DNA of 64,000 nt, taken from an uncultured Desulfobacteraceae bacterium (lineage in GTDB: Bacteria > Desulfobacterota > Desulfobacteria > Desulfobacterales > CAZHA01). Shown here piece by piece: positions 3,436-46,517 of the stretch. Every line of letters starts with the position of its first letter. The first letter of the stretch is position 1. The notes beneath the pieces were generated by a model. That model saw only the letters and a list, made by a program, of their open reading frames with translations, ran no database searches and was not told where the DNA came from. Where the stretch lies: positions 21,691 to 85,690 of the forward strand of contig CAZHAH010000002.1 of assembly GCA_964530095.1 (NCBI GenBank), written 5' to 3'. The position numbers and the translations under genes are program-made.

Positions 3436-3669
3436 ATGGCATATAATCTACGGATCTACAATACGGCGAAGCACGTCAGATCTGCTCAGTGGCAGCCACA
3501 ATTGATCAGTCGAACGGGTTTTGAAGAATGGGAGGCTGGAGGTAGCCAGAGTTTTCTAGACCAAGCCCATCAACGATTGGAAGAAATTGTTGAAACTCAT
3601 ACCACATTAGAGCTTTCTGAAGAAAGGTTACAAGCGATTCAAGCCCGGATTGATAAATTTAAAAGATAA
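3436..3669 (+). pseudogene. 3' remnant of an MttB-family methyltransferase gene (last ~75 codons only)
   Basis: NTAKHVRSAQWQPQLISRTGFEEWEAGGSQ... aligns with HTFKHMKTVQTHPELIDRRVRVDWEADGGK... of the full mttB at 15655..17127. No upstream MttB body is present. Confidence 0.7.
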
Positions 3670-3858
3670 AACGTTACTAAATAAAAAAGAGCAAGGTGTT
3701 GAAATCCATCAGAAGTAAAAGAAGGAATGAATGGTCTTTGTCTGCGGGTTCTGCCTAAGCACTGTTGCTATAAGAATGGGAAGAATGTTTCGGTCTTTAT
3801 AACCAGTAATTTGGAAAGACCTTGCAATTCTGCGTGGATTTTAATAGTTGGATGGACT

Positions 3859-4092
3859 ATGTTTGATAAAGATAATTATAACTGCCCTTTCTGTGATAAA
3901 GATTTGTCAGCTAGAAATTTTCAACATAGACCAAGAAAAATGTTAATAGAAACTTGCCCACATTGCAATGAGAAATTGTCTTTTGATGCTTATTATGGGA
4001 TTCCTTTAAAACCAATGACTCGAAAACAGGTAGTCACTCTCCTTATAGTAATATTAATTGCTTATGGATTGTTGATATTCATAGCGAAATAA
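3859..4092 (+). CDS. Small zinc-ribbon protein with a C-terminal transmembrane helix (hypothetical)
   Basis: MFDKDNYNCPFCDKD...CPHCNEK (two CxxC pairs), then VVTLLIVILIAYGLLIFIA. Visibly AT-rich segment. Start moved to ATG 3859. Confidence 0.4.
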   Translation: MFDKDNYNCPFCDKDLSARNFQHRPRKMLIETCPHCNEKLSFDAYYGIPLKPMTRKQVVTLLIVILIAYGLLIFIAK

Positions 4093-4099
4093 AAAATTG

Positions 4100-4430
4100 T
4101 ATACACCGTGGCAGTGTGTGGAGGCTGCCATAATGATTGCCTCGAAACATCCCAACGTATTTTTAGGTATATCAGCTCACTCCCCGAAACAATTGTAGCC
4201 CGTTGATGGTCTAATTCATCAACTTGCACGCTGTGGCTTTTCTCCATTCCCGGACAAGGGCAATGTTAGCAGCACAGGGCTCATCAACGGTTAGAGCCGT
4301 CAGCCGCCTAACGGTCTTTCTTGAAGGCATTAACACTGTCACGGGTGAGGTTGAACTGGGCATCGACATCCGAGATGTATCGCTGAAAAACATGCATGAT
4401 TTGAAAAGCGCTGTCTTCACATTTCTTTAA
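4100..4430 (+). pseudogene. 3' remnant of an amidohydrolase-2-type gene with an in-frame TAG (4196-4198) and a frameshift
   Basis: Own translation: YTPWQCVEAAIMIASKHPNVFLGISAHSPKQL*PVDGLIHQL..., then in another frame ...FLEGINTV...LGIDIRDVSLKNMHDL. This is the pattern of C-terminal amidohydrolase-2 strands, and the N-terminal two thirds are absent. Confidence 0.45.
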
Positions 4431-4479
4431 GGACTCGAGCCAAAATTTGGGCCAGATCGAATAATAATGGTGACCCCAT

Positions 4480-4770
4480 TTATTGACTGATAGTATCAAG
4501 CCCAAAATTATCGAATAGCTCGTTGGCTTTGGCGATGGCCTTTGGATCGGTGATGCCCAGGTTGGTACCGAGCAACCCCAGTGTCTCAAACTCAGGTCCG
4601 CCTATACTGGGCGTTACCTGATAAGGCTCATCGAGGGCTATTGCTGTTTCTTGAATAGCGCTGAAAAGCTTACGGTTTCCTTCAGTTTCCAGTGACCACT
4701 CCCGATGCCTGACCTTCCGCGCAATTTTTTGCTTATTTTTCCTTTGGGATTTGTATTTCGCAGATATCAT
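4480..4770 (-). pseudogene. Internal fragment of an aldehyde:ferredoxin oxidoreductase (AOR) family gene
   Basis: GGPEFETLGLLGTNLGITDPKAIAKANELFDNFGLDTIS is the classic AOR mid-protein signature. It is flanked by stops with no N- or C-terminal domains. Confidence 0.6.
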
Positions 4771-4940
4771 CCCCCTTGCATATACATTTCCCGAGATTCC
4801 CTTTCAAAGCGGGCTGATAGTGTTTGCCGATTCCACTGTCCTGCTTAAAGTAACATTTCCAGGTTTCTTTACGGGACTCAGGATGAAATTGGGAACCATA
4901 TCAGTGATATCCGTTATCCACGACAACAGCACTGTATGGG

Positions 4941-5031
4941 GTTTATGAAGTATCAAAAGATTAAAACTGTCGCTAAAAATGGAAAAGGACAAATCCCTTG
5001 AGCGAACCGAATAAGCCAAGAGAATTTCCAT
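4941..5031. repeat. 91-nt direct repeat, copy B
   Basis: See copy A. Copy B abuts the truncated gene start at 5032-5176. Confidence 0.9.
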
Positions 5032-5176
5032 TAAATCCTTGGGGTGACCAGAAAAGAAAATAATGAACAAATGCACCGGCGAAAGCGAGAACGATTTTAA
5101 GGCCTAAATGAACGAGAGGCTTATCCCCTCCCAAGACGGCCACCCACTGATTCATGAATCCATGCACTTTATCCAT
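5032..5176 (-). pseudogene. 5' remnant (~48 codons) of a paralogue of the membrane protein gene at 1..345
   Basis: MDKVHGFMNQWVAVLGGDKPLVHLGLKIVLAFAGAFVHYFLF vs MDKWVGYLDQVVVMLGGEKANLQTPIKIGIIVVGAFVLWLIL. Similarity stops where repeat copy B begins. Confidence 0.5.
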
Positions 5177-5611
5177 ATTGCGCTCCTGGTGTCATTTAAC
5201 TTAGATATAGGGGAATAGGGCCATAAAGTCAAAAAAGTTTGGGCGTCGTAAAATCGTCCCGCACATTTCGGTGATCGCCCATGTTTTTCAGCGATCTGTG
5301 TTATAGAGTAGGGGACCCCCTTCCTCCGACTCTCGCCCCCCAACGCTTGGCTTTTTTCGGCTACAAAATTTTTCTGGTGGCTGCAAAAAACCGAATGGGT
5401 AGGCCAAGCGCTTTTCTAAGACGCTGAAAATTAAATCAATTTTCCGTTTTCCGGTAATATTACACCCCTAACAAAACCCCATTTTTTAAATTTGACTTTT
5501 AACATCGGTTTAATTATTCAAAACAGGGTTGCACTGTTTTTCCTGTCCTTAATAACCCAAAACATAACGGCCTGGACTTAAACTTGATCCCATTCTGGAA
5601 GGTTTAACACC

Positions 5612-7060
5612 ATGCAAGTAAACATCGCTGATGTAACCTGGGAAGCGTTTATTTACCCCAGATCTGCCAAAAGCGAAAAGACTGTTGAGGCCTACACCGA
5701 AGCCCTCTCTGTAGGGGCCCAGTTCCCGCCAATAAAAATCCAGCGGGTTTTTAACTACCCCGCTGACAATGGCAATACAAAAGCCACGTTAATCCTCGAT
5801 GGTATCCACCGCTGGTCTGCGTTTAAGGCAAAGGGGATCAAAGAGATTGCCGCCGTTGAATGGAAGAACAAGCCCCTTGATTACGAGAAAAACAAAGTGG
5901 CGCTTCTGCTCGAATCGGCAGGATGCAACCTCAGTCATGGTGATCGATTAAGCGCAAGCGATAAAAAGCGCATCGCCCGTGATATAGCGTCTACAGACCC
6001 GGAATGTATTTGGACGGAAGAAGCCCTTGCAAAAAAATTGGGGGTAATACGGCAGACCGTCAACAACTGGATTTCTGATATCAGGACTCGGCAAAAGGCT
6101 GGGCGGAATACGGTTATCCTCCGGTTGAGCCGCCTGGGTTGGCCTCAGGAGCAGATCGCAGAGATAGCGGGGGTGAGCCAGGGTAGGGTTGCTCAAATTA
6201 TTAATAATACCAATTTTGGCGGAATTAATAATTTGCTCTCCCAGGGCCGTGATATGGACTATATCGCTTCCCATTACAACATAGATCTCGCCCTGGCATG
6301 GGCTTTGCTGTTGGCGGGAAAAACAGACCAGGAAAAGTTCACTGCCCTTGGCTGGGGACTTCGAACCTGGGATCGGTGGTATTTCAATGACTGCGACCAG
6401 CGCTTCGGCGACGACTGGCCGGGCAGGATTCCGGCCCAGCTCGTTGCGCACACCCTTTTTTACTTTACCGACCCCGGAGACCTTGTTCTCGACCCGATGG
6501 CCGGCGGCGGCGTAGTCTCCGACGTTTGTCTGCTTTTTGAACGAAAATGCTTCTCCTTTGACATGGCCGTCAGAGATAACCGGCCGGAAATCCGCCATCG
6601 TTGCTGGGATACTGCTGATCTGAAATGGCCCCGGATCAAAAAACCCGATCTGATTTTTTTCGATCCCCCGTATTTTTCAAAGATGGACGTTGCATACAAA
6701 AAAATGACCGACAACACCACCTCGATCTCCTCTCTTTCCAAGGAAGACTACGAAGCCTTCCTATCTTATTTTTTTACCCTTGCGCACAAAAATGCCAAAC
6801 CTATAACCCGGCTGGCCTTCTTGAACGCCGACTGGCGGGATTTTGAATCGACACCAGCAAGAAAAGAACAGGCTGCCAACGCCATAACGATATTCGATTA
6901 TCACAGGCTGCTGTCTCAAACGGGCTGGGAAATCACCCACCGGATTGAATGCCCGCTGAGTTCCGAACGCTTCATCGGCTTTCAGGTCCGGCGGATGCAG
7001 GCAAAAAAAATATTGGGCACGGTATCCAGATCGCTTTTGATAGCAAAAAGGGGAAAATAG
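5612..7060 (+). CDS. ParB/Srx-like N-terminal domain + HTH + SAM-dependent DNA methyltransferase (DPPY type) fusion
   Basis: LILDGIHRW (DGxHR ParB-N motif), HTH-like QEQIAEIAGVSQGRVAQIINN, SAM loop VLDPMAGGGVVSD, catalytic IFFDPPYF. No restriction partner is adjacent. Ends in TAG. Confidence 0.75.
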   Translation: MQVNIADVTWEAFIYPRSAKSEKTVEAYTEALSVGAQFPPIKIQRVFNYPADNGNTKATLILDGIHRWSAFKAKGIKEIAAVEWKNKPLDYEKNKVALLLESAGCNLSHGDRLSASDKKRIARDIASTDPECIWTEEALAKKLGVIRQTVNNWISDIRTRQKAGRNTVILRLSRLGWPQEQIAEIAGVSQGRVAQIINNTNFGGINNLLSQGRDMDYIASHYNIDLALAWALLLAGKTDQEKFTALGWGLRTWDRWYFNDCDQRFGDDWPGRIPAQLVAHTLFYFTDPGDLVLDPMAGGGVVSDVCLLFERKCFSFDMAVRDNRPEIRHRCWDTADLKWPRIKKPDLIFFDPPYFSKMDVAYKKMTDNTTSISSLSKEDYEAFLSYFFTLAHKNAKPITRLAFLNADWRDFESTPARKEQAANAITIFDYHRLLSQTGWEITHRIECPLSSERFIGFQVRRMQAKKILGTVSRSLLIAKRGK

Positions 7061-7225
7061 CGGTGTCGCCTTGTAAAAAATGATGCTCCGATGCAGGTAA
7101 CAAGCACACTTCCCTCAGGATATCAGCCGGTCTCAAGACCTGAGATATGACATAGGGGGAAACCTTTATGCCATATGACGAAAAATTGAGGAAGATGGAA
7201 TAAAAATTGATCCCTGTGAAAATTT

Positions 7226-7900
7226 CTATCTGTCAGATAGACTATCTGCGATCCTACATATCAAATCAAAGGCCTCATGTATGTTGAAACTATCGAAATC
7301 AGCAGGTCTAAGCACAGGCCTCAACTGACCTTCCAGCTGCCGATCAAGCCCCCGATCAAGCCCCCGCTTATATTCTAAAGAGATGTCAACCGGAGTATTC
7401 CCCGGTACATCGAGCTTTTTTTTCACCATTATGAGGAAATCGTGATCATCAAGATCCAGCTTCATTTTACGGACAGCATGGAACAGGTCGAATAAATCCC
7501 GGATTGCAGGTTCTTTCCTGGTGAGGGCTGCCCGGACTTTTTCTGCGTATGCCTCCTGCATTTCCATTGCATGGACGGTAAAAATGAGAAGCAGAGACCG
7601 GCCACTAAAGGGATTCACAGCGATTGTGCGCGTCTCGACAGTCACCGAAGTACGAAGGAGCGGCTCACGGATGCCGATTTCAATTTTGACTTTCTCCTGC
7701 TTCTCCATCACAGCCGAAGGGTATTCAAGGTAACCGATGTATTGTCGCGATTCATTATGCCCGCTGAACGCTTTTGAAATGGCAATCCCAGGAATGACGG
7801 CAGGCAGTTGATTATAAATTTCCTTAATGGGGTCCATCTCGGAACGTATCTGATTTCCGGATATATGGCTCAGAAAAAAAATGCTTGACATGGAATTCAC
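7226..7900 (-). pseudogene. 5'-truncated AbiEii/AbiGii-family nucleotidyltransferase toxin gene
   Basis: C-terminal signature KVKIEIGIREP... and AYAEKVRAALTRKEPAIRDLFDLFH is present. The N-terminal NTase motif (GG[ST]AL ... SxDxD) is missing. Only a GTG start is available and there is no AbiEi partner. Confidence 0.55.
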
Positions 7901-7930
7901 ACAGGGCTATTCTGTCATACATAATGTTTT

Positions 7931-7953
7931 ATTGTCACGAATAGTGTGACAAT
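7931..7953. repeat. Perfect 8-bp inverted repeat ATTGTCAC-N7-GTGACAAT
   Basis: Read directly, just beyond the truncated 5' end of the AbiEii remnant. Possible former operator. Confidence 0.5.
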
Positions 7954-8246
7954 ACAGTGTTGTGGTTGCGACCCTACACTGTGATTTTCGATCCCACACG
8001 CCGCAGACCTATTATGGGGCTGCTCTTTTACCGCCTAGACGACCGATGAACTGCTGTATAAAGAGATGTAATGACTCAAAGGGAAAGATTTCCGGCTGCG
8101 TTATATACAGCAAAATCGTTTGGCGTTTGAGGCTTTGTGACAGCTTGTTGGGGGGGGTGAGCGACGCAAATATCGATCACCTCGCCTGTTTATACGGTAA
8201 ATGGACGTAGTTATGAATAACCCTATCCAACAAAAGGAGGTTTACA

Positions 8247-13764: not shown

Positions 13765-14985
13765 TCAGTACTTCCCAAACTCCCACACCGCCTCATACAT
13801 CGCCATGATGTTTTCCGGAGGAACATCCGGAAGAATGTTATGAACCTGTGAAAAGATGAATCCCCCTCCGGGAGCGAGGTCGTCAATCCTTCTTTTCACC
13901 TCGTCACGGATTTCCTGCCTGGTCCCATGCGGAAGAATCCTTTGGGTGTCGCATCCGCCTCCCCAAAACCCCAAAACATCTCCGAACTCTTTTGTTAATC
14001 TTTTGGTATCCATATCGACCGCCGAGGCCTGAACCGGATTCAGAAAATCGACACCCGCTTCAATTAAATCAGGAATCAATCGGTAAACCGATCCGTCCGT
14101 GTGCATCACAATAGGGACTCCTGATGTTTTTTTGATGTGAGAATATAATTTTTGGTGGTATGGCTTGATCATCTTTCTGTACATTTCAGGTGAGATAATC
14201 GGAGCGTCCTGGGTCCCCAGGTCATCACTGACCTGCACGACATCCAGGTACTGTCCCAGCGCAGCCCAATATCGATCGAATCGTTCACAATAAACATCTG
14301 CAATTCGGTCCATGATTGCTTCGGCAAAAACGGGGCGTTCTATGAGATCGAGGAGGAAAACCTCCCACCCCCTGAGCCCCTGAGCGCCGGCAAATATATT
14401 GCCTGCAAAATTTGACCCCACTAAAGGGTAGTCCGTTTTTTCACGGATATTTTTGGCGAACTCTCTCGCTTCCTCAAGCGCCTGGTTCAAATCTTTTGGA
14501 AGATTAAAGTTTAGGCCGATATTGAAGATATCGTCCTGGCGACGGTCCAGGTCGGCCAAGGTTTCACAGTCCTTCAAGGGATAGTAAACCGGCTCAAAAA
14601 AATGACCTGCCGAAGGCCTCAAGTAGGTGATGTTCCCATCTGAATCTCTAACAACTTCAGACCCATCACTTTGAGTCACCGGGTTCCATGCCTCGGGGAT
14701 TTCACACAGCGACCCATCAGACATTTTTCCCGGTTTGTAATGGGCTTCTATATAAGCTGAATGAATGTCGGCCCTTACGGCCTGCAAAACGTCCTCTTCA
14801 ACATCGGCGAGTTGTTGAGTAACACAAACAATTCGTATATTTCCTTCCTTCAAACCCATGTATGATCTCAACCTTTTATAGGCAATCGCTGAAATGCCGC
14901 TCACATCAAGGCCACCCAAGTCTACGGGTACCCTATCCGGTTCTTGATGATTAATTGCATGTAAAACTCTCTCTCTTCTATTCAT
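13765..14985 (-). CDS. Uroporphyrinogen-decarboxylase (URO-D / MtaA-MtbA-like) family protein
   Basis: NRRERVLHAINHQEPDRVPVDLGG start and a TIM-barrel-like body. VMHTDGS occupies the position where MT2 enzymes have H-x-C-G. ATG 14985 (GAGGGGG upstream) preferred over 15000. Confidence 0.7.
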   Translation of the reverse strand: MNRRERVLHAINHQEPDRVPVDLGGLDVSGISAIAYKRLRSYMGLKEGNIRIVCVTQQLADVEEDVLQAVRADIHSAYIEAHYKPGKMSDGSLCEIPEAWNPVTQSDGSEVVRDSDGNITYLRPSAGHFFEPVYYPLKDCETLADLDRRQDDIFNIGLNFNLPKDLNQALEEAREFAKNIREKTDYPLVGSNFAGNIFAGAQGLRGWEVFLLDLIERPVFAEAIMDRIADVYCERFDRYWAALGQYLDVVQVSDDLGTQDAPIISPEMYRKMIKPYHQKLYSHIKKTSGVPIVMHTDGSVYRLIPDLIEAGVDFLNPVQASAVDMDTKRLTKEFGDVLGFWGGGCDTQRILPHGTRQEIRDEVKRRIDDLAPGGGFIFSQVHNILPDVPPENIMAMYEAVWEFGKY

Positions 14986-15085
14986 TAAGTTCCCCCTCAT
15001 CGGTGAAAGGTTTAGACAATCAGCTTACTTTGAATTCAGACTTCGTCGAATAGTCGCTTGGAAAATAATAGAAAAAGCACATCGC

Positions 15086-15652
15086 TCAATGGCCATTATG
15101 ACAAAGAATTTGATGTAAAACATCCATATTGATATTTCGTGAACTGATCACGGTCACCACTTCTCTGCCAATATCCTTTACAAGGTTGTTCATCAATGCT
15201 GCAATGCCGACAGACGCTGCACCTTCAATAACTATTTTTTCTTGTTCTAATGTATACTTGATCGCTGATGCGATCTGATCCTCGTTTACAAGTATCAAGT
15301 CGTCCACATACGTCTGAACCATATTGAATGTATAGCGGTTGTCAAGACCGATGCCCCCGCCCAAATTGTCAGCCAACGTTTCCAACTCTGCAACCTGTAC
15401 CGGCCTCCCGGCTTTCTGACTTTCATACATGGCGGCTCCTCGCTCCTCAGCGCTGAGGTTGCGCAGACGGTTTGTGGCACCACGGATCTTGAATGCACCG
15501 ATATCATGAACCGTTTCGAGTTTCAGGTATACAGATGCCCCGCAACGGATTGATATTCCGGTAGAAAATACAAGTGGGGTACGGTGAACAAAGGGGCGGA
15601 TCGCTTTTTGGGCCTTGTATATTTCACCCAATGTTACGGTTGATTCGGACAT
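15086..15652 (-). pseudogene. Threonine-dehydratase/EutB-like gene with an in-frame internal deletion of about 145 codons
   Basis: N-terminus through the PLP-Lys motif (GAFKIRGATNRLRNLSAEERG) joins directly to AAMYESQKAGRPVQV... In the full-length paralogue (28598..29592) these segments are ~145 residues apart, so GNHG and the Gly-rich phosphate loop are missing. Confidence 0.6.
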
Positions 15653-15654
15653 AA

Positions 15655-17127
15655 TTAGGAGACTCCCAACTCTTCTTCAGCCTCATCCACGATAGACCTG
15701 ATGGTGGAGACGACATCTGAAGGGAGTGGTTCCGGCTTGTGGGTCTTCAGAATATGTCTCGCCTTTTCCCATGCCCTGTCGTAGAGGCCCTTTCCACCGT
15801 CGGCTTCCCAGTCCACCCGCACTCTTCTATCGATAAGTTCCGGATGGGTCTGAACGGTCTTCATGTGCTTAAACGTGTGATCGTGGCCAAGGAAATGCCC
15901 GTGGGGTCCGATCTCTCGAATAACATCCACAGCAAGGGTTTCATCATTGACGGGAATGCCCTTGAGTACATACCTAATCATACTGATAAACTCATCGTCC
16001 ATTACCAGTTGTCCATAGTCCACGGTCATGCCAGTTTCGAGCTGTCCCACCCCATAAATCATGTTGGCACCTGCCAACGCTGGTAACAAGAGGGTAAGGG
16101 TTTTCTCATGGCCGGCCTGGACATCGGAGATCTTGCTATCGCACTACCCACCGGAGATCCAGCTTGGCAGGAGATATTTGCGGGCCATCTGAGCAGTCGC
16201 AGCACTGAGCAAGGCTGTTTCAGGATTACCGACAACTGCATTGCCTAGCCTCAGGTCCAAGCTGCAGGCTGAACTGCCGTAAAAACAGGGTGCGCCTTTT
16301 TGTGTCAACTGGCTGAGCACAACCCCCGAGAGGACTTCTGCGTTGTGGGTAACAAGGGCCCCCGCAAGGGTGACAGGCGACGAACCACCCGCCATACCCT
16401 GGCCCAATATTTCAATCGGCAACCCGGATCGGGACGTTGCCATGATAATTTGACAGCAATCTTTCACCATTTTGAGAGGCGTTACCAGAGCGGTGCCGAA
16501 TGTCATGATCGACCGATCTTTGAGCTTCTCTGCTCCTCCGACAACAGCCGCAGCCATTTCCAAAATTTTCTTGGCCAGGTATCCGCTCTGAGGTCCGATG
16601 AAACAGTGCTTGGTTGTATTCAAGAGCATGGCTTCGGCATTGTGGGCCGCAGCCACATTTTGGGCAACATCATTCGATCCCATTATCCTGTGACAGATAT
16701 CCATATTATCGAGGAAATCCATCAGGCGAGTACATTCAGCCAGGTCTCCTTTGGTGGTATCTCGTAATTCACCTGTGGTGGGATCGACCATCAATATCCC
16801 CTCACCAAAGGGATCAAATGCAACACTATTCATTTCAATTACCACGTCACGGTCTGGATTTCGCCCCGCCAGGACGACGGTCTCAGGGGCCGAGCTGACA
16901 GCCTCTTCCAGCAAATAAGGCGGAATCTTTACGATCTTCGTTTTCGGATCAACTGTGGCGCCCCCACCATCAAAGACTTCCATGGCTTCTTCATCTTCGA
17001 CAAATACGCCGTTTTTCCAGAGGACCTCCAGCGTCGCAGCGTGAATTCGATCCATGTCCGCATCGCTAAGGACGCTGAACGCTACACCTCCGTTTTCTGA
17101 TTTACCGGCACGAATGTTACGTTTCAT
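15655..17127 (-). CDS. mttB: Trimethylamine:corrinoid methyltransferase MttB with in-frame UAG at codon 328 (predicted pyrrolysine); 490 codons
   Basis: Track ORFs 16144..17127 and 15655..16089 are one reading frame interrupted only by TAG (16146-16144): ...[58 protein letters not shown] precedes ATG 17127. Close match to remembered Methanosarcina MttB around Pyl334. Confidence 0.85.
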
Positions 17128-17265
17128 GATATACTCCTTTTATTTCGGTTTCTATTCAAAGAAACTTGTCGAAGAGAGCGCAAAAGACTCTCGGCACTGG
17201 TAGCACCTTCTATTGCCTATCAAGGTACTCATCTTTTGGAAAATCTAAACTCAAAGCAGGCATGA

Positions 17266-18747
17266 TTACTTCCTATTCACACGCATAGAAATTGACGCAA
17301 GTTCTATCCCAGCATTTTTTTTCTTGGAATCCAAAAAAGCCTCTAGCTCTCGCACAGCTTCATCAGGCAGAGGTTCCTCTTGCGCATGGTTTTTCAAGAT
17401 GTCACTTATCAGGTCCTGGGATTTTTCTTCGGCCGTGCGGCCACCGGCTGCTTCCCAAATATCGTATTTGTCCCGGTCCAGGATAGTGGGTATAAAGTGC
17501 TCGGTGCGAAAATACTTAAAGGTATGATCGCAGCTCAAGAAATCTCCCCTGGGGCCTACTGCCTTGATTTCCTCAAAGGCCAGTGTATCGTTATTCACAG
17601 CGATGCCATCTGCCACTCGTTTGGACATGGCTATGATCTCATTATCAACCACCGTTTTCTCATAAGAGGCTCCCAGAGTATTTTCCAGCTCACCGCCGGC
17701 ATGATTAACATAGGTGACTCCCCCTAACAGACAAAGTAGATTGCTCATTAGACTTTCTACGCCTGCTTGCATTCCCAAACAGTTGGCATCGCTGGCGCCA
17801 CCGGTTCCCCGGCTGGGAATTCCATAATAGCGTGCCATCTGGGCAGTTGCCATGGAAAGTAGATCTGCTTCTGGAGCGCCATAGGGTAGAATGGTTGTCC
17901 GCATGTCCAATGCAGAGCATACGCAGCCGAACATGACCGGATTTCCGGGGTTGATGAGCTGAGCATAGGTGGCATGTGCCATAAACTCCGCTATTGCCTG
18001 GGCTAAGGCCCCGGCAATGGTCGCAGGACCCGTAGCCCCAGCCATCACTTCGGGAGCAATCATCAGCGGTATCTTTCGGTGGGCATATTCTGACAGCGCT
18101 TCCAACTCCTCGGCTGAGTTGGCCAGGGGGCTTTTGGTGTTGCACACCACCATGATGGGAAGCTGTCCCTTGGGCATGCCACACGCATCAGCTACAATCT
18201 CGGCAATCGTAATATGGTCCCGGGCACACTGACCATTAAAGGTTGTGCCCAGCACAGGTTTATTACTATGGATTAAGCTGGTTATAAACGCCCAGGCTTC
18301 TAAAACTCCTGGAGCCAAGCTGGCAGGATAGACACCTACAGTGGATATTTCATAATGCGGCAGGGCATCCGTCAGACGGGAGAAATCAATTCCATCCTGT
18401 TCAACTGCGGCGCGATGTTTACCACCGGCATCAATTACATTCAGGGCACAATTGGGGCCACTATAATATGTGTCTATGCCATTCATATCCAGGCTGTATT
18501 TGGGGTTACGCGCATGGAAGGTAAAGCGGGACGGAAGTTTTTTAAAACTGTTTTCAATCAAGCTGGCGGGAATCCGCACGATTTGCTTATCGAAATCTAC
18601 TTGAGCGCCCGCAGCATCATAGAGATCTAAAGCCTCCTGAAAAGGCATGCATAAGCCGATTTCCTCTACGATTCGCAGAGCCGTTAGGTGAATCTTTTTC
18701 ACATCATCCGGGGTGAGAACTTCGTAATAATTTGGGTGCTTGTCCAT
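17266..18747 (-). CDS. MttB-superfamily methyltransferase without an amber codon (quaternary-amine/betaine type, substrate unknown)
   Basis: 493 aa, colinear with the mttB next door. Ala occupies the Pyl column (SRGTGGASDANCLGMQAG). Confidence 0.85.
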   Translation of the reverse strand: MDKHPNYYEVLTPDDVKKIHLTALRIVEEIGLCMPFQEALDLYDAAGAQVDFDKQIVRIPASLIENSFKKLPSRFTFHARNPKYSLDMNGIDTYYSGPNCALNVIDAGGKHRAAVEQDGIDFSRLTDALPHYEISTVGVYPASLAPGVLEAWAFITSLIHSNKPVLGTTFNGQCARDHITIAEIVADACGMPKGQLPIMVVCNTKSPLANSAEELEALSEYAHRKIPLMIAPEVMAGATGPATIAGALAQAIAEFMAHATYAQLINPGNPVMFGCVCSALDMRTTILPYGAPEADLLSMATAQMARYYGIPSRGTGGASDANCLGMQAGVESLMSNLLCLLGGVTYVNHAGGELENTLGASYEKTVVDNEIIAMSKRVADGIAVNNDTLAFEEIKAVGPRGDFLSCDHTFKYFRTEHFIPTILDRDKYDIWEAAGGRTAEEKSQDLISDILKNHAQEEPLPDEAVRELEAFLDSKKKNAGIELASISMRVNRK

Positions 18748-28601: not shown

Positions 28602-29592
28602 TGTGTCCCCCCCTTAACAAGTCTGCTTTGTATGATGCGAATATATTCTTCCGAGTCGATGCTGCTACCTGTCAGCAGGAGCTCAACCTTTTTTCCTTTC
28701 ACATCTATCTTCCGACTCAACAGCGCACCGACACCGACCACCCCGGCTCCCTCTACGATCAACCGGTGCTGATCGAAGGTATAAAAAAACCGTCTTTTAT
28801 CTCTTCTTCGGATACCAACAAGTGTTCATCCGTAAATTTCTCCACCAACGGCAACGTGTACCGGTTATCAAAACCGATACCCCCTAAAAGCGAATCGGCA
28901 ATGGAATCTTTTTCTTCCACCTGAACGGGTCTGCCGGCTTTAAGGCTTTCCGCCATGGCCGGAGATCGCTCCAGAGAAAGCCCGACAATATGAATGCCCG
29001 GATTGATCGATTTGGCCGCCATGGCAATCCCTGCCAAGAGACCGCCGCCGGACAGCTGAATCATCAGGATATCGGTATCGGGAAGCTTTGACAGTATTTC
29101 GAGCCCAATGGTCCCCTGGCCAGCGATGATCATCGGATCATCAAACGGGACAACAGGGACAAGTCCCCGGGACGCTGCCAGTTGTTGATAGTTCTTCTCC
29201 GCTTCATCCTGGGAATGGCCTTTTACCGAGACTTCCGCACCAATTTTTCTGATGATATCGGCCCGGTAGGCAGCGACATGTTCGGATAGACAAACAAGCG
29301 CTTTAATTCCGGTTTGTCCGGCCACATAGGCCACTGCCTTGCCGTGGTTGCCGGTTGAAAAAGTGATGACGCCTTTTTTCTTCTCTTCTTCGCTGAGGCT
29401 TAGGATCTTATTTGCCGCGCCTCTCACTTTAAAGGCACCAGTGTTCTGCAGACATTCCAGCTTCAAGTGAACCGAATGCGCACCGGTTCTTTCCGCCAAA
29501 TCACTGGATGGCAACAGCGGCGTTTGAAGGATCACCGGTTCAATTCGAACATGGGCTCGATACACATCATGCAGCGTCGGTAGGTGTGTCAT
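28598..29592 (-). pseudogene. EutB-like threonine/serine dehydratase (PLP) interrupted by a -1 frameshift in an A7 run (28783-28789)
   Basis: The track ORF (28759..29592) ends ...EEEIKDGFFIPSISTG*. The next frame continues FFYTFDQHRLIVEGAGVVGVGALLSRKIDVKGKKVELLLTGSSIDSEEY... to TGA at 28600-28598, matching the C-terminus kept in the paralogue (KYTLEQEKIVIEGAASVGIAAL). One extra A restores 331 codons. Confidence 0.75.
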
Positions 29593-29604: not shown

Positions 29605-30042
29605 CTATCGCCGTGTAACGAAAACCGAGATGGGAGATCGACGCAACACTTTCTCCGCCGTACTGCCCATGACAATCTTTTTCAAATCCGACCGACCATG
29701 GGAGCCGGCAAATACCAGATCATAGTTGCCGTTTTCAATCTCATAAAGGCAGCTGATATAAGGCGTTCCCTTTCGAATTTTTCGCTTATATCCGATCTTG
29801 GCCAATTCGGGAATCGCCGCTTCCAGGTTATCAAACTGCTCTTCGGCATGTTTTTCAAGTTTTCGCTCTAAAGTGTGATATTCGGAATCGGATAACACAT
29901 AGGTCAGATTGTGTGTGTCACGAACAACATTCAGGATGGTCAGACGTGAATTATATTTTTTCGCAAAATCGACTGCTGCTTTAACCGCTTCATCGGAATC
30001 TTTGGAAAAGTCGGTCAATACAAGCACATTTTGATATTCCAT
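29605..30042 (-). CDS. Universal stress protein (UspA family), in a TeaD-like position
   Basis: 145 aa. ILVLTDFS...LTILNVV...LVFAGSHGRSDLKKIVMGSTAEKVLRRSPISVFV. GAGGAG RBS. Ends in TAG. Confidence 0.85.
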   Translation of the reverse strand: MEYQNVLVLTDFSKDSDEAVKAAVDFAKKYNSRLTILNVVRDTHNLTYVLSDSEYHTLERKLEKHAEEQFDNLEAAIPELAKIGYKRKIRKGTPYISCLYEIENGNYDLVFAGSHGRSDLKKIVMGSTAEKVLRRSPISVFVTRR

Positions 30043-37438: not shown

Positions 37439-38296
37439 TTACTCGCTGTTCTCCATTAGTTTATTAAGCTTTGGAAGTTCTCCTTCCACCATCTTGTATG
37501 CATGTTCTTCTTTTGGAAAATGGCCGCTACGAGCCTCGTCAGCATAGAGTCTGAAGGCTTCAATGGTCTTTTCCGCCAGGTTTGCATATTTTTTAACGAA
37601 CTTCGGTGTAAAGGCTTGGAATATACCCAGCACATCGCTACAAATCATGAGCTGGCCGTCGGCTTCCCAGCCGGCACCAATACTGTAGACAGGGATGGTC
37701 AGATTGTCGCGAATAATACCGCAGACTTCCGGCGGAACCGCTTCCACCAGCAGTGAATAAGCGCCGGCCTCTTCGATGGCCCAGGCATCCGCTATCACAT
37801 CTTTTGCTGCTTCGGCGGTCCTGCCCTGGGCCTTAAAGCCGCCCAGCTGTCCGGAGCTCTGGGGCGTCAGCCCGATATGTCCCATTACCAGCATACCGGC
37901 GTCGGCGATGGCCCGAATCTGGGGGCACACCCGCTGGCCGCCCTCGAGCTTGATTGCATCCACCCGGGCTTCCTTTAGAAATCTGCCGGCATTGCGAACC
38001 GCCTCTTCAACGCTGACTTGATAGGACAAAAAGGGCATGTCGCCGATAACAAACGTGTTGGGCGCTCCGCGGCGGACCGCTTCGCTGTGCCAGATGCACT
38101 GATCCATGGTGACCGGCACCGTTCCCTCATATCCGTAGACACACATTCCCAGCGAATCACCCACCAGAATCATATCCATGCCGGCCTGTTCCGCAAAGTT
38201 GGCCGTCCAGTAATCGTAAGCGGTGATCCATACCGCAACCTGCCGCGATTCCTTCATTTTCTGCAAATCGATTCTTGAAAACTTCTTTTTGGCCAT
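37439..38296 (-). CDS. panB: 3-methyl-2-oxobutanoate hydroxymethyltransferase (PanB) family enzyme in a catabolic context
   Basis: ITAYDY...LVGDSLGMCVYGYEGTVPVTMDQCIWHSEAVRRG...VIGDMPFLSYQ...DAIKLEGG...MGHIGLTPQS...GGFKAQGR. AGGAGG RBS. Confidence 0.8.
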   Translation of the reverse strand: MAKKKFSRIDLQKMKESRQVAVWITAYDYWTANFAEQAGMDMILVGDSLGMCVYGYEGTVPVTMDQCIWHSEAVRRGAPNTFVIGDMPFLSYQVSVEEAVRNAGRFLKEARVDAIKLEGGQRVCPQIRAIADAGMLVMGHIGLTPQSSGQLGGFKAQGRTAEAAKDVIADAWAIEEAGAYSLLVEAVPPEVCGIIRDNLTIPVYSIGAGWEADGQLMICSDVLGIFQAFTPKFVKKYANLAEKTIEAFRLYADEARSGHFPKEEHAYKMVEGELPKLNKLMENSE

Positions 38297-38305
38297 TTTA
38301 TCCTC

Positions 38306-39085
38306 CTATTCGGATGTCGTATTCCCCAATCCATGGGAGATGGTCCGGCAGACGCGCCGAACCTCTTTTTGTATTTCCCTGACCCGGGCGCTGGTGACAC
38401 GGCTGACCGGTCCTGCCACACTGATGGAAAAACGGGACATGCCGGTATGGTCGAATATGGGTGCGGCCACGCACCTGAGGCCCTTGGACAACTCCTCATT
38501 GTCGACGGCGTATCCATTCATCCGGATTTTTTCGAACTCTTTTTTCAAGGCTGCTTTCGACGTGATGGTTTTGGGGCCAAGGGGTTTCAATTCGATGGTT
38601 TCCAGGATCCGGTTTCTTTCGGCTTCGGGCAGGAAGGCGAAAATCGACTTGCCCAGAGCCGTACAATAGGCTGGGGCCCGTGAACCCAAGGGCGAATCCA
38701 TACGCAGCACTTCGGGCGAATCGATTTTGTCGATGTGAAGAACATCCGATCCATCCAGGTATCCGAGATTGATGGTTTCCTTGAAGGCCTGTGACAGTTC
38801 GTTCATCAGCGGCCGCGCCATTTGCCGGATTTCGAACCGATCCGCAACCCGGGCACCCATGCGGTAAGTTTTGAATGTCAACCGGTAGCGGTTTTCAGCG
38901 GTCTTTTCTACATAACCCAGCTCTTTCAGTGTCGCCAGGAACCGGTGGCTGCCCGCCCGGTTGTAACCCAACCGATTGGCCACCTCGGACACCGACAGAT
39001 CCTCATTTTTTGACAACAGCTCCAACACTTTCAGTCCCTTTGCCAGTGAACTGATGAAAAAGTATTTTTCTCCTGCAGCAGGCAA
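38306..39085 (-). CDS. IclR-family transcriptional regulator
   Basis: SSLAKGLKVLELLS...LSVSEVANRLGYNRAGSHRFLATLKELGYV, then an effector domain. TTG start with AAAGGA. Confidence 0.85.
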   Translation of the reverse strand: MPAAGEKYFFISSLAKGLKVLELLSKNEDLSVSEVANRLGYNRAGSHRFLATLKELGYVEKTAENRYRLTFKTYRMGARVADRFEIRQMARPLMNELSQAFKETINLGYLDGSDVLHIDKIDSPEVLRMDSPLGSRAPAYCTALGKSIFAFLPEAERNRILETIELKPLGPKTITSKAALKKEFEKIRMNGYAVDNEELSKGLRCVAAPIFDHTGMSRFSISVAGPVSRVTSARVREIQKEVRRVCRTISHGLGNTTSE

Positions 39086-45752: not shown

Positions 45753-46517
45753 CTATTTTACTTCGGAAAAGAATCCGGCCTTCAAGAATTCGCGATTTAA
45801 ACGGGCGATGTTGGTGATCGAAATTTCCTTGGGACACTCCGCCTCACACTCGGATTCGTTGGAACAATTGCCAAACCCGACGGCGTCCATGGCCTTTATC
45901 ATTTGAGTGGCGCGCCTGGCGGCTTCCGGCTTGCCTTGGGGCAAAAGCGCCAGATGAGACACTTTGGCTCCCACAAAAAGCATGGCCGAAGCATTTGGGC
46001 AAGTCGCCACACAAGCGCCACACCCGATGCAAGCGGCGGCATCCATCGCCTTTTCAACAATTTCCTGGGGAATAAGAATTGCGTTGCCATCCTGGGCTCC
46101 ACCGGTCTTGGCCGATATATAACCGCCAGCCTGGATAACCCTGTCAAAAGCACCGCGGTCGATAACCAGGTCCTTGATTACCGGAAAGGCTCTGGCCCGA
46201 AATGGTTCGATTACAATGGTATCGCCATCTGAGAAATGACGCATGTGGAGCTGGCATAAAGTGGTGGCCGTTTCATGTCCATGGGCGCGGCCATTGGCAA
46301 CGGCGCCACAGGTCCCACAAATTCCCTCCCGGCAATCGTGATCAAAGGCGATGGGATCCTGATTCGAAAGGGTCAGCTGCTCATTGACCACATCGAGCAT
46401 CTCCAGAAAAGACATGTCCACAGAGATATCCCGGGCCTGAAAGATTTCAAAGTTACCCTTGCTGCGGGCATCTTTTTGACGCCAAACCTTAAGGGTTAAA
46501 TTGATGGTCTGGGTCAT
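45753..46517 (-). CDS. sdhB: Succinate dehydrogenase/fumarate reductase iron-sulfur subunit
   Basis: [40 protein letters not shown]. Ends in TAG. Confidence 0.9.

Follow-up and report, generated by a model that had tools for sequence, protein, structure and literature searches.

A predicted pyrrolysine codon within a trimethylamine methyltransferase gene of an uncultured Desulfobacteraceae bacterium

The gene described here lies at positions 15655-17127 on the minus strand of a 64,000-nucleotide stretch of DNA (hereafter, the window) from an uncultured Desulfobacteraceae bacterium (GenBank assembly GCA_964530095.1, contig CAZHAH010000002.1). It corresponds to mttB, which encodes trimethylamine:corrinoid methyltransferase, and its 490 codons are followed by a terminal TAA and include one UAG, codon 328 (16144-16146, minus strand), which would be read through to give the full-length protein. 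This UAG sits exactly at the column that holds pyrrolysine (Pyl) in the archaeal enzyme, and the region is almost certainly one Pyl-containing gene rather than two open reading frames (ORFs). We consider it very probable that the UAG is decoded as Pyl by tRNA-Pyl(CUA) and PylS, with PylBCD supplying the amino acid, and that all of these are encoded elsewhere in the genome. An earlier note on this DNA, made without database searches, had predicted a Pyl site in a trimethylamine methyltransferase. The aligned column, the family profile score, the Gly and Tyr residues of the active site, the recurrence of the TAG in relatives and the selection acting past it all agree with that prediction.

Translation of the minus strand shows that the TAG at 16146-16144 is the sole internal stop in a frame that runs from an ATG at 17127 to the TAA at 15657-15655, as the earlier note had read it. 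An AAGGAG Shine-Dalgarno motif (17134-17139, minus strand), identified by direct reading, is located 6 nucleotides 5' to this ATG. Nothing similar is found ahead of the internal TTG at 16089, in agreement with the earlier note, which had seen a strong ribosome-binding site before the upstream half only. A mechanical ORF list cuts the frame at the TAG into 16144-17127 (327 amino acids, ATG start) and 15655-16089 (144 amino acids, starting at the internal TTG). The expectation that automated annotation would split the gene is borne out by public gene calls, which give proteins of 327 and 135 amino acids on contigs identical to the window; every public assembly examined divides mttB into a 327-residue ORF and a shorter downstream ORF. 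The open frame past the TAG is more than chance, because a frame would stay free of stops for 162 codons beyond a true stop with a probability of ~(61/64)^162, or ~4e-4 by our own calculation, and because the post-TAG part matches the C-terminal third of the MttB model with E=6e-72.

The TAG is also reproducible. Contigs from four sequencing runs (SRR31802803, SRR8146440, SRR24302412 and SRR24302411) match the window at 100% identity across 13-21 kb, TAG included. These are independently assembled Logan contigs, and the four runs represent three projects with three accession series; other parts of the window are present in further runs at 100% amino acid identity. Because the TAG recurs unchanged in contigs of four runs from three projects, an assembly error, which the earlier note had named as something that would undo its reading, is excluded for practical purposes. 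The same TAG also occurs in orthologues of other species, and we give a negligible probability to the idea that sequencing or assembly introduced it into a sense codon. In a separate observation, the Logan contigs of every run end at the same two places in the window, one at ~669 (53 bp upstream of the ORF at 722-1507) and the other at ~45,717 (36 bp beyond the gene at 45753-46517), which suggests repeats or strain-variable junctions at these points.

Family membership was assessed with TIGR02369 (trimeth_pyl), an NCBIfam equivalog profile of length 469 whose curated cutoff is 525 bits. The read-through protein, with X at position 328, scores 678.6 bits and matches profile positions 2-469, and its two halves alone score 418.1 bits (positions 2-313) and 242.6 bits (positions 316-469). 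The match of the C-terminal half starts at its second residue, such that the TAG codon and the codon following it fill positions 314-315. A similar division is observed with the Pfam MTTB profile (PF06253), to which the halves match at positions 29-337 and 340-499. Among solved structures, the best match is Methanosarcina barkeri MttB (7XCL, 7XCM and 7XCN; E=9e-108, residues 2-485), and the window protein is 40.3% identical to the 7XCL chain. In this alignment X328 pairs with chain residue 334, the pyrrolysine (written X) of 7XCL and the K of the 7XCM variant, so the proposed equivalence of the TAG column with Pyl334 of M. barkeri MttB stands. The residues flanking the TAG match the archaeal protein, as the earlier note had proposed, although the actual sequence reads PALAGANTIYG and differs from the letters given there. 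The window protein matches the Desulfitobacterium hafniense protein MtgB at 236 bits, versus 364 bits for M. barkeri MttB.

Residues that assist Pyl in catalysis are retained. Gly110 and Tyr364 of the M. barkeri enzyme are fully conserved among Pyl-containing MttB proteins and position the water that activates the Pyl imine; the Gly110 carbonyl holds a water bound to the imine, and the Y364F substitution lowers Vmax from 48 to 1.7 turnovers per minute, or ~28-fold (PMC9842639). By pairwise mapping, their counterparts are Gly108 (codon 16804-16806, minus strand) and Tyr358 (codon 16054-16056, minus strand). Tyr occupies the latter position in 12 of 12 Desulfobacterales sequences that we compared. 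The position of M. barkeri Thr111 is Glu in the window protein.

Of the best 120 database homologues, ~37 are exactly 327 amino acids long and span the N-terminal 67% of the window protein at 57-87% identity; their ORFs therefore end at the same codon as that of the window. A scan of relatives was conducted with one genome per species, in a set that excludes the source genome (best match 90% identical). It yielded 13 related loci, all in metagenome-assembled genomes (MAGs) of Desulfobacterales, Desulfobacteraceae or Desulfobacula, two of them labelled Proteobacteria only. Each of the 11 loci that cover the column (53-90% identity) has TAG as codon 328, without a single TAA or TGA, and has no other in-frame stop.

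Purifying selection on mttB is equally strong after the TAG as before it. Nei-Gojobori ratios of nonsynonymous to synonymous substitution rates (dN/dS) are about 0.1 throughout, at 0.121 before and 0.125 after the TAG relative to the closely related locus L007, and at 0.101 and 0.092 relative to L008, with dS of 0.46-0.9 in these comparisons. We also assigned changes to branches, with L007 and L008 serving as references. For the branch specific to the window, this gave 19 synonymous versus 5 nonsynonymous changes upstream of the TAG; downstream of it, 11 were synonymous and 1 was nonsynonymous (P=8e-7 under neutrality, where ~77% of changes are expected to be nonsynonymous). Because both the ratios and the branch-specific changes show selection, the 162 post-TAG codons have, to judge from these sequence comparisons, been translated in frame in the window lineage. 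These results bear on the possibility that the gene is a relic, in which the Pyl machinery was lost or never present, so that translation stops at the TAG and does not reach the 3' part. A relic would fit with the lack of pyl genes, pylT and mttC in the window or just beyond it, and with decay among the neighbours, where two eutB-like ORFs are defective and 3436-3669 is a fragment of mttB. However, the post-TAG dN/dS of 0.09-0.125 equals that of the upstream part, the changes on the window's own branch are overwhelmingly synonymous, and no second stop or frameshift is found in the 162 codons. The selection test would miss a loss of the machinery only if it were very recent, and we regard a relic as very unlikely.

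TAG also serves as an ordinary stop codon in this organism. It ends 11 of the 59 other confident ORFs of the window, including those of an ABC transporter ATPase, DctM and an iron-sulfur subunit of the Sdh/Frd type. Thus the codon is not reassigned genome-wide, and the UAG in mttB is a case of site-specific recoding, which competes with termination as in other bacteria that use Pyl. Elsewhere in the window, two pairs of minus-strand genes occupy the same frame and are parted only by a TAG and a few codons: a Usp gene (29605-30042) followed by a EutB-like gene (28759-29592), with the TAG at 29605-29607, and an IclR gene (38306-39085) followed by a PanB-like gene (37439-38296), with the TAG at 38306-38308. 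Unselective UAG read-through would fuse the members of each pair; this arrangement is probably a coincidence.

A near-cognate tRNA or another suppressor tRNA could in principle read the UAG in mttB, in which case a canonical residue would occupy position 328. Full-length homologues with a sense residue at the Pyl column do exist: Ala is found in P0004, Trp in P0007, P0008 and P0021, and His in P0090, and these proteins are 44-57% identical to the window protein. P0004 and P0007 score 733.5 and 713.3 bits on TIGR02369, above the 678.6 bits of the TAG-containing gene, so automated annotation would name them trimethylamine methyltransferases, and because both exceed the cutoff, a canonical residue can occupy the Pyl site in related proteins. 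However, the TAG is kept in all 11 relatives, several of which have pylT and pylS alongside, as Pyl decoding predicts, and the costly stop would have given way to a sense codon if a canonical residue were tolerated. There is also no tRNA gene in the window. Insertion of a canonical residue is accordingly, in our assessment, highly improbable.

The UAG is the first codon of a match to the Rfam model RF02510 (PYLIS_3), located at 16047-16146 on the minus strand and scoring 77.5 bits against a gathering score of 38. The model comprises ~7 base pairs, 5 of which are non-canonical in the window sequence, and the 100-nucleotide stretch has a minimum free energy of -23.9 kcal/mol, compared to a mean of -26.8 for dinucleotide shuffles (z=+0.86). 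With mostly non-canonical pairs and a fold no better than that of shuffled sequences, we rejected this match both as an RNA element and as independent support for Pyl insertion. We judge that its score stems from conserved codons (D-x-K...QAGHEKT...PALAGAN-IYG), that is, from the coding sequence. Promoter and terminator scans revealed nothing above shuffled expectation.

Several observations weigh against Pyl decoding of this gene by its host, or against trimethylamine as its substrate. ARAGORN detected no tRNA gene in the 64-kb window, and searches of its 71 ORFs of at least 70 amino acids with Pfam and NCBIfam detected no PylS, PylB, PylC, PylD, B12-binding corrinoid protein or RamA. The sequence beyond the window ends, which amounts to ~3.5 kb on the right and almost nothing on the left, contains no tRNA, pyl genes, corrinoid protein or activase. 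No pyl cluster is tied to the window's genome, and the one pyl locus that shares sequencing runs with the window is probably that of a co-resident organism. Finally, a residue of the substrate pocket is altered and the gene context is unlike that of classical mtt operons, as described below. We nonetheless infer that pylT, pylS, pylBCD, mttC and ramA are present in the host genome.

The machinery is found beside mttB in some relatives. ARAGORN identified tRNA-Pyl(CUA) in loci L009, L010, L013 and L017. L017 has a row of genes comprising pylT, pylSn, an MttC-type corrinoid gene, pylB, pylC, pylD and pylSc, while L010 has pylT, pylSc, mttB with its TAG, an MttC-type corrinoid gene, a split mtbB and pylC. 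L013 contains mttB with its TAG, an MttC-type gene, an MtaA-like gene, pylT, pylSc and pylB. The MAG to which L013 belongs, JASFTQ01, also carries an 86% identical orthologue of the window mttB (L016), apart from its pyl cluster.

All three projects that contain the window, and three of its runs, also contain a further pyl-mttB locus with pylT (L028-L031). Its layout is identical to that of L010, with pylT, pylSc, mttB carrying the TAG, mttC, a split mtbB, pylC, a non-Pyl mttB and, on the opposite strand, a second split mtbB; it constitutes a compact methylamine and Pyl island of a Desulfobacteraceae population. We considered this locus (P0107/L028) as the missing pyl locus of the window genome and rejected it. 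It is 99.8% identical to the MAG CAYWMP01, it correlates less well with the window in tetranucleotide composition (r=0.85) than loci of other species do, and it has no repeats in common with the window. Moreover, its best run, SRR31802801, is absent from the runs found in four look-ups of window genes. Given the 99.8% identity to CAYWMP01 and the different abundance pattern across runs, the locus probably represents another organism living alongside the host. The PylSc homologues P0122 and P0202 were likewise rejected, as they come from unrelated samples, and so was P0031, a 72% homologue from an unrelated marine water-column organism.

The isolation of the window gene from mttC and pyl genes has parallels. 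Loci L032-L039, from marine water-column metagenomes (JGI and ENA), contain a 72%-identical TAG-containing mttB that stands alone beside a major facilitator superfamily (MFS) transporter gene; neither mttC nor pyl genes lie within 10 kb of it. Because this copy lies apart from such genes, stand-alone Pyl-encoding mttB genes are not unusual; an adjacent mttC is usual, but not required.

The window mttB resides inside an island at 12418-39085 that resembles those for ectoine or creatine degradation. The island includes four M24 hydrolases resembling creatinase or DoeA, a DoeB-like M20 deacylase, two EutA-like and two EutB-like genes, a TfrAB-like pair of flavoprotein and iron-sulfur protein, an aminotransferase, a PanB-like protein and an IclR regulator, as well as two TRAP transport systems and an ABC transporter. 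It is kept but rearranged in the three closest relatives (L007, L008 and L016), which also have the orthologous TAG-containing mttB inside it. In none of these four is the gene beside mttC or pyl genes.

The altered pocket residue corresponds to Met249 of M. barkeri MttB, which moves aside upon binding of MttC and thereby opens the trimethylamine pocket (PMC9842639). By pairwise mapping, this position is Gln243 in the window protein (codon 16399-16401, minus strand). Gln is also present in L007, L008, L009 and L011, and Met in L010, L012, L013, L014, L015 and L017; of the Met-bearing loci, L010, L013 and L017 have pylT and pyl genes nearby. Because of this Gln and of a context unlike classical mtt operons, trimethylamine as the substrate is less certain than the assignment of Pyl.

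The enzyme might therefore depend on Pyl and yet not be dedicated to free trimethylamine, acting instead on another methylamine or on trimethylamine released in situ within the surrounding island for osmolytes or amino acid derivatives. The association of the TAG-containing gene with M24, DoeB-like, EutA/EutB-like, aminotransferase and TRAP genes in the window, L007, L008 and L016, never beside mttC, is consistent with this possibility, as is the Gln in place of the pocket-gating Met that loci such as L010, L013 and L017 retain. On the other hand, the protein scores above the TIGR02369 equivalog cutoff and has retained the Gly and Tyr required for Pyl activation, stand-alone Pyl-encoding mttB genes occur in unrelated contexts such as that of L032, with its MFS transporter, and neighbourhood in rearranged islands is weak evidence of function. 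We find such a change of role unlikely. In the same vein, we regard it as unlikely that the window, L007, L008 and L016 copies form a distinct orthologue group that became uncoupled from the pyl/mttC operon and was recruited into an ectoine- or creatine-like osmolyte island, with the Met249-to-Gln change in its pocket and either a new substrate or trimethylamine made in situ by the pathway of the island.

If the gene is a Pyl-dependent trimethylamine methyltransferase of a marine-type Desulfobacterales bacterium, as we infer, its operation can be proposed by analogy with M. barkeri MttB. UAG328 would be decoded by tRNA-Pyl(CUA) and PylS, with Pyl made by PylBCD, from genes located elsewhere in the genome. 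Read-through would produce a 490-residue TIM-barrel enzyme, and termination a 327-residue fragment whose barrel lacks its final portion. In the full-length enzyme, a water held by Tyr358 and the Gly108 carbonyl would activate the pyrroline imine of Pyl328. Pyl328 would then bind trimethylamine and present a methyl group to the Co(I) of an MttC-type corrinoid protein that is also encoded elsewhere, from which the methyl would pass to a one-carbon carrier, probably tetrahydrofolate in a sulfate reducer.

Upstream of mttB is a 493-residue paralogue of the MttB superfamily (17266-18747, minus strand; Pfam MTTB E=4e-107) that scores 355.5 bits on TIGR02369, below the cutoff of 525. It is 30% identical to the Pyl copy and, as the earlier note had observed, has Ala at the Pyl column and lacks an internal stop. 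L007 has an 86% orthologue. This non-Pyl protein is probably a quaternary-amine methyltransferase.

On the other side of mttB, 2 nucleotides past its stop codon, begins an ORF for a truncated EutB-like dehydratase dependent on pyridoxal phosphate (15086-15652, minus strand, 188 amino acids). It matches the EutB profile at positions 4-74 and 207-322 only, which corresponds to an internal deletion of ~130 residues; in L016, a full-length eutB-like gene adjoins the orthologous mttB. The second EutB-like ORF (28759-29592, minus strand, 277 amino acids) diverges after '...IKDG' and is without ~45 C-terminal residues when compared to its 77%-identical, ~325-residue orthologue in L008. Both EutB-like genes look defective.

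A further gene (13765-15000, minus strand) encodes a 411-residue protein distantly related to URO-D and to MtaA/CmuA (Pfam URO-D E=7.5e-26). It scores 52 bits on TIGR01463, far below the cutoff, and is ~25% identical to URO-D/MtaA-like genes near the pyl clusters of relatives, and no orthologue was found in the related loci. It is a speculative candidate for the methylcorrinoid:acceptor methyltransferase.

Farther away, the region at 3436-8000 looks degraded or mobile. It contains a 77-residue C-terminal fragment of MttB (3436-3669; Pfam MTTB positions 425-494), a fragment of aldehyde:ferredoxin oxidoreductase (4480-4770), a DNA methylase/helix-turn-helix protein (5612-7060) and an AbiEii toxin-like gene (7226-7900).

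For annotation, mttB should be recorded as one coding sequence of 490 codons with a translation exception at codon 328. The gene adds one more uncultured lineage of sulfate reducers to those that could use trimethylamine in marine sediments in competition with methylotrophic methanogens; such a role for Desulfobacterales has been proposed before (PMC8318568). Looking ahead, the one lead is the combination of an unusual gene context and the Gln243 variant, which may reflect a change of substrate, although the evidence for this is thin.

Pyl-encoding mttB genes are already known in marine sulfate-reducing Deltaproteobacteria, and the window adds another member. One was reported in 2007 in a symbiotic deltaproteobacterium, the delta1 symbiont of Olavius algarvensis (PMC1976440). 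In 2021, marine Desulfobacterales 'bbl' genomes were found to have a conserved UAG in mttB, non-Pyl paralogues in the same locus and a cognate corrinoid protein within 10 genes of mttB (PMC8318568). The window resembles these systems in its taxonomic group, in the conserved UAG and the residues after it, and in having a non-Pyl paralogue in the locus. Unlike the bbl genomes, it has no corrinoid protein that we could find in 64 kb, and its mttB is inside an ectoine-degradation-like island. The copies in L010/L028, L013 and L017 have their TAG at codon 328, as in the window, and are 53-61% identical to the window protein, but they are within a few kb of pylT, pylS (as pylSc or pylSn), some or all of pylB, pylC and pylD, and an MttC-type gene, whereas the copies in the window, L007, L008 and L016 are not.

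The non-Pyl protein MtgB of D. hafniense (2QNE and 9YCE) belongs to the same superfamily, and the paralogue at 17266-18747 is of its kind; unlike MtgB, the window mttB has a UAG and scores above the cutoff for Pyl-containing MttB. M. barkeri MttB (Pyl334; 7XCL, 7XCM and 7XCN; PMC9842639) shares with the window protein its fold family, the UAG column, and the residues equivalent to Gly110 and Tyr364, and the two are of similar length, with 490 residues in the window protein and M. barkeri numbering that extends to ~495 (the 7XCL chain has 503). The window system differs in its bacterial host, in the replacement of Thr111 by Glu and Met249 by Gln, and in having no adjacent mttC, mttP or ramA. 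Also in contrast to M. barkeri, its downstream methyl acceptor is presumably not coenzyme M.

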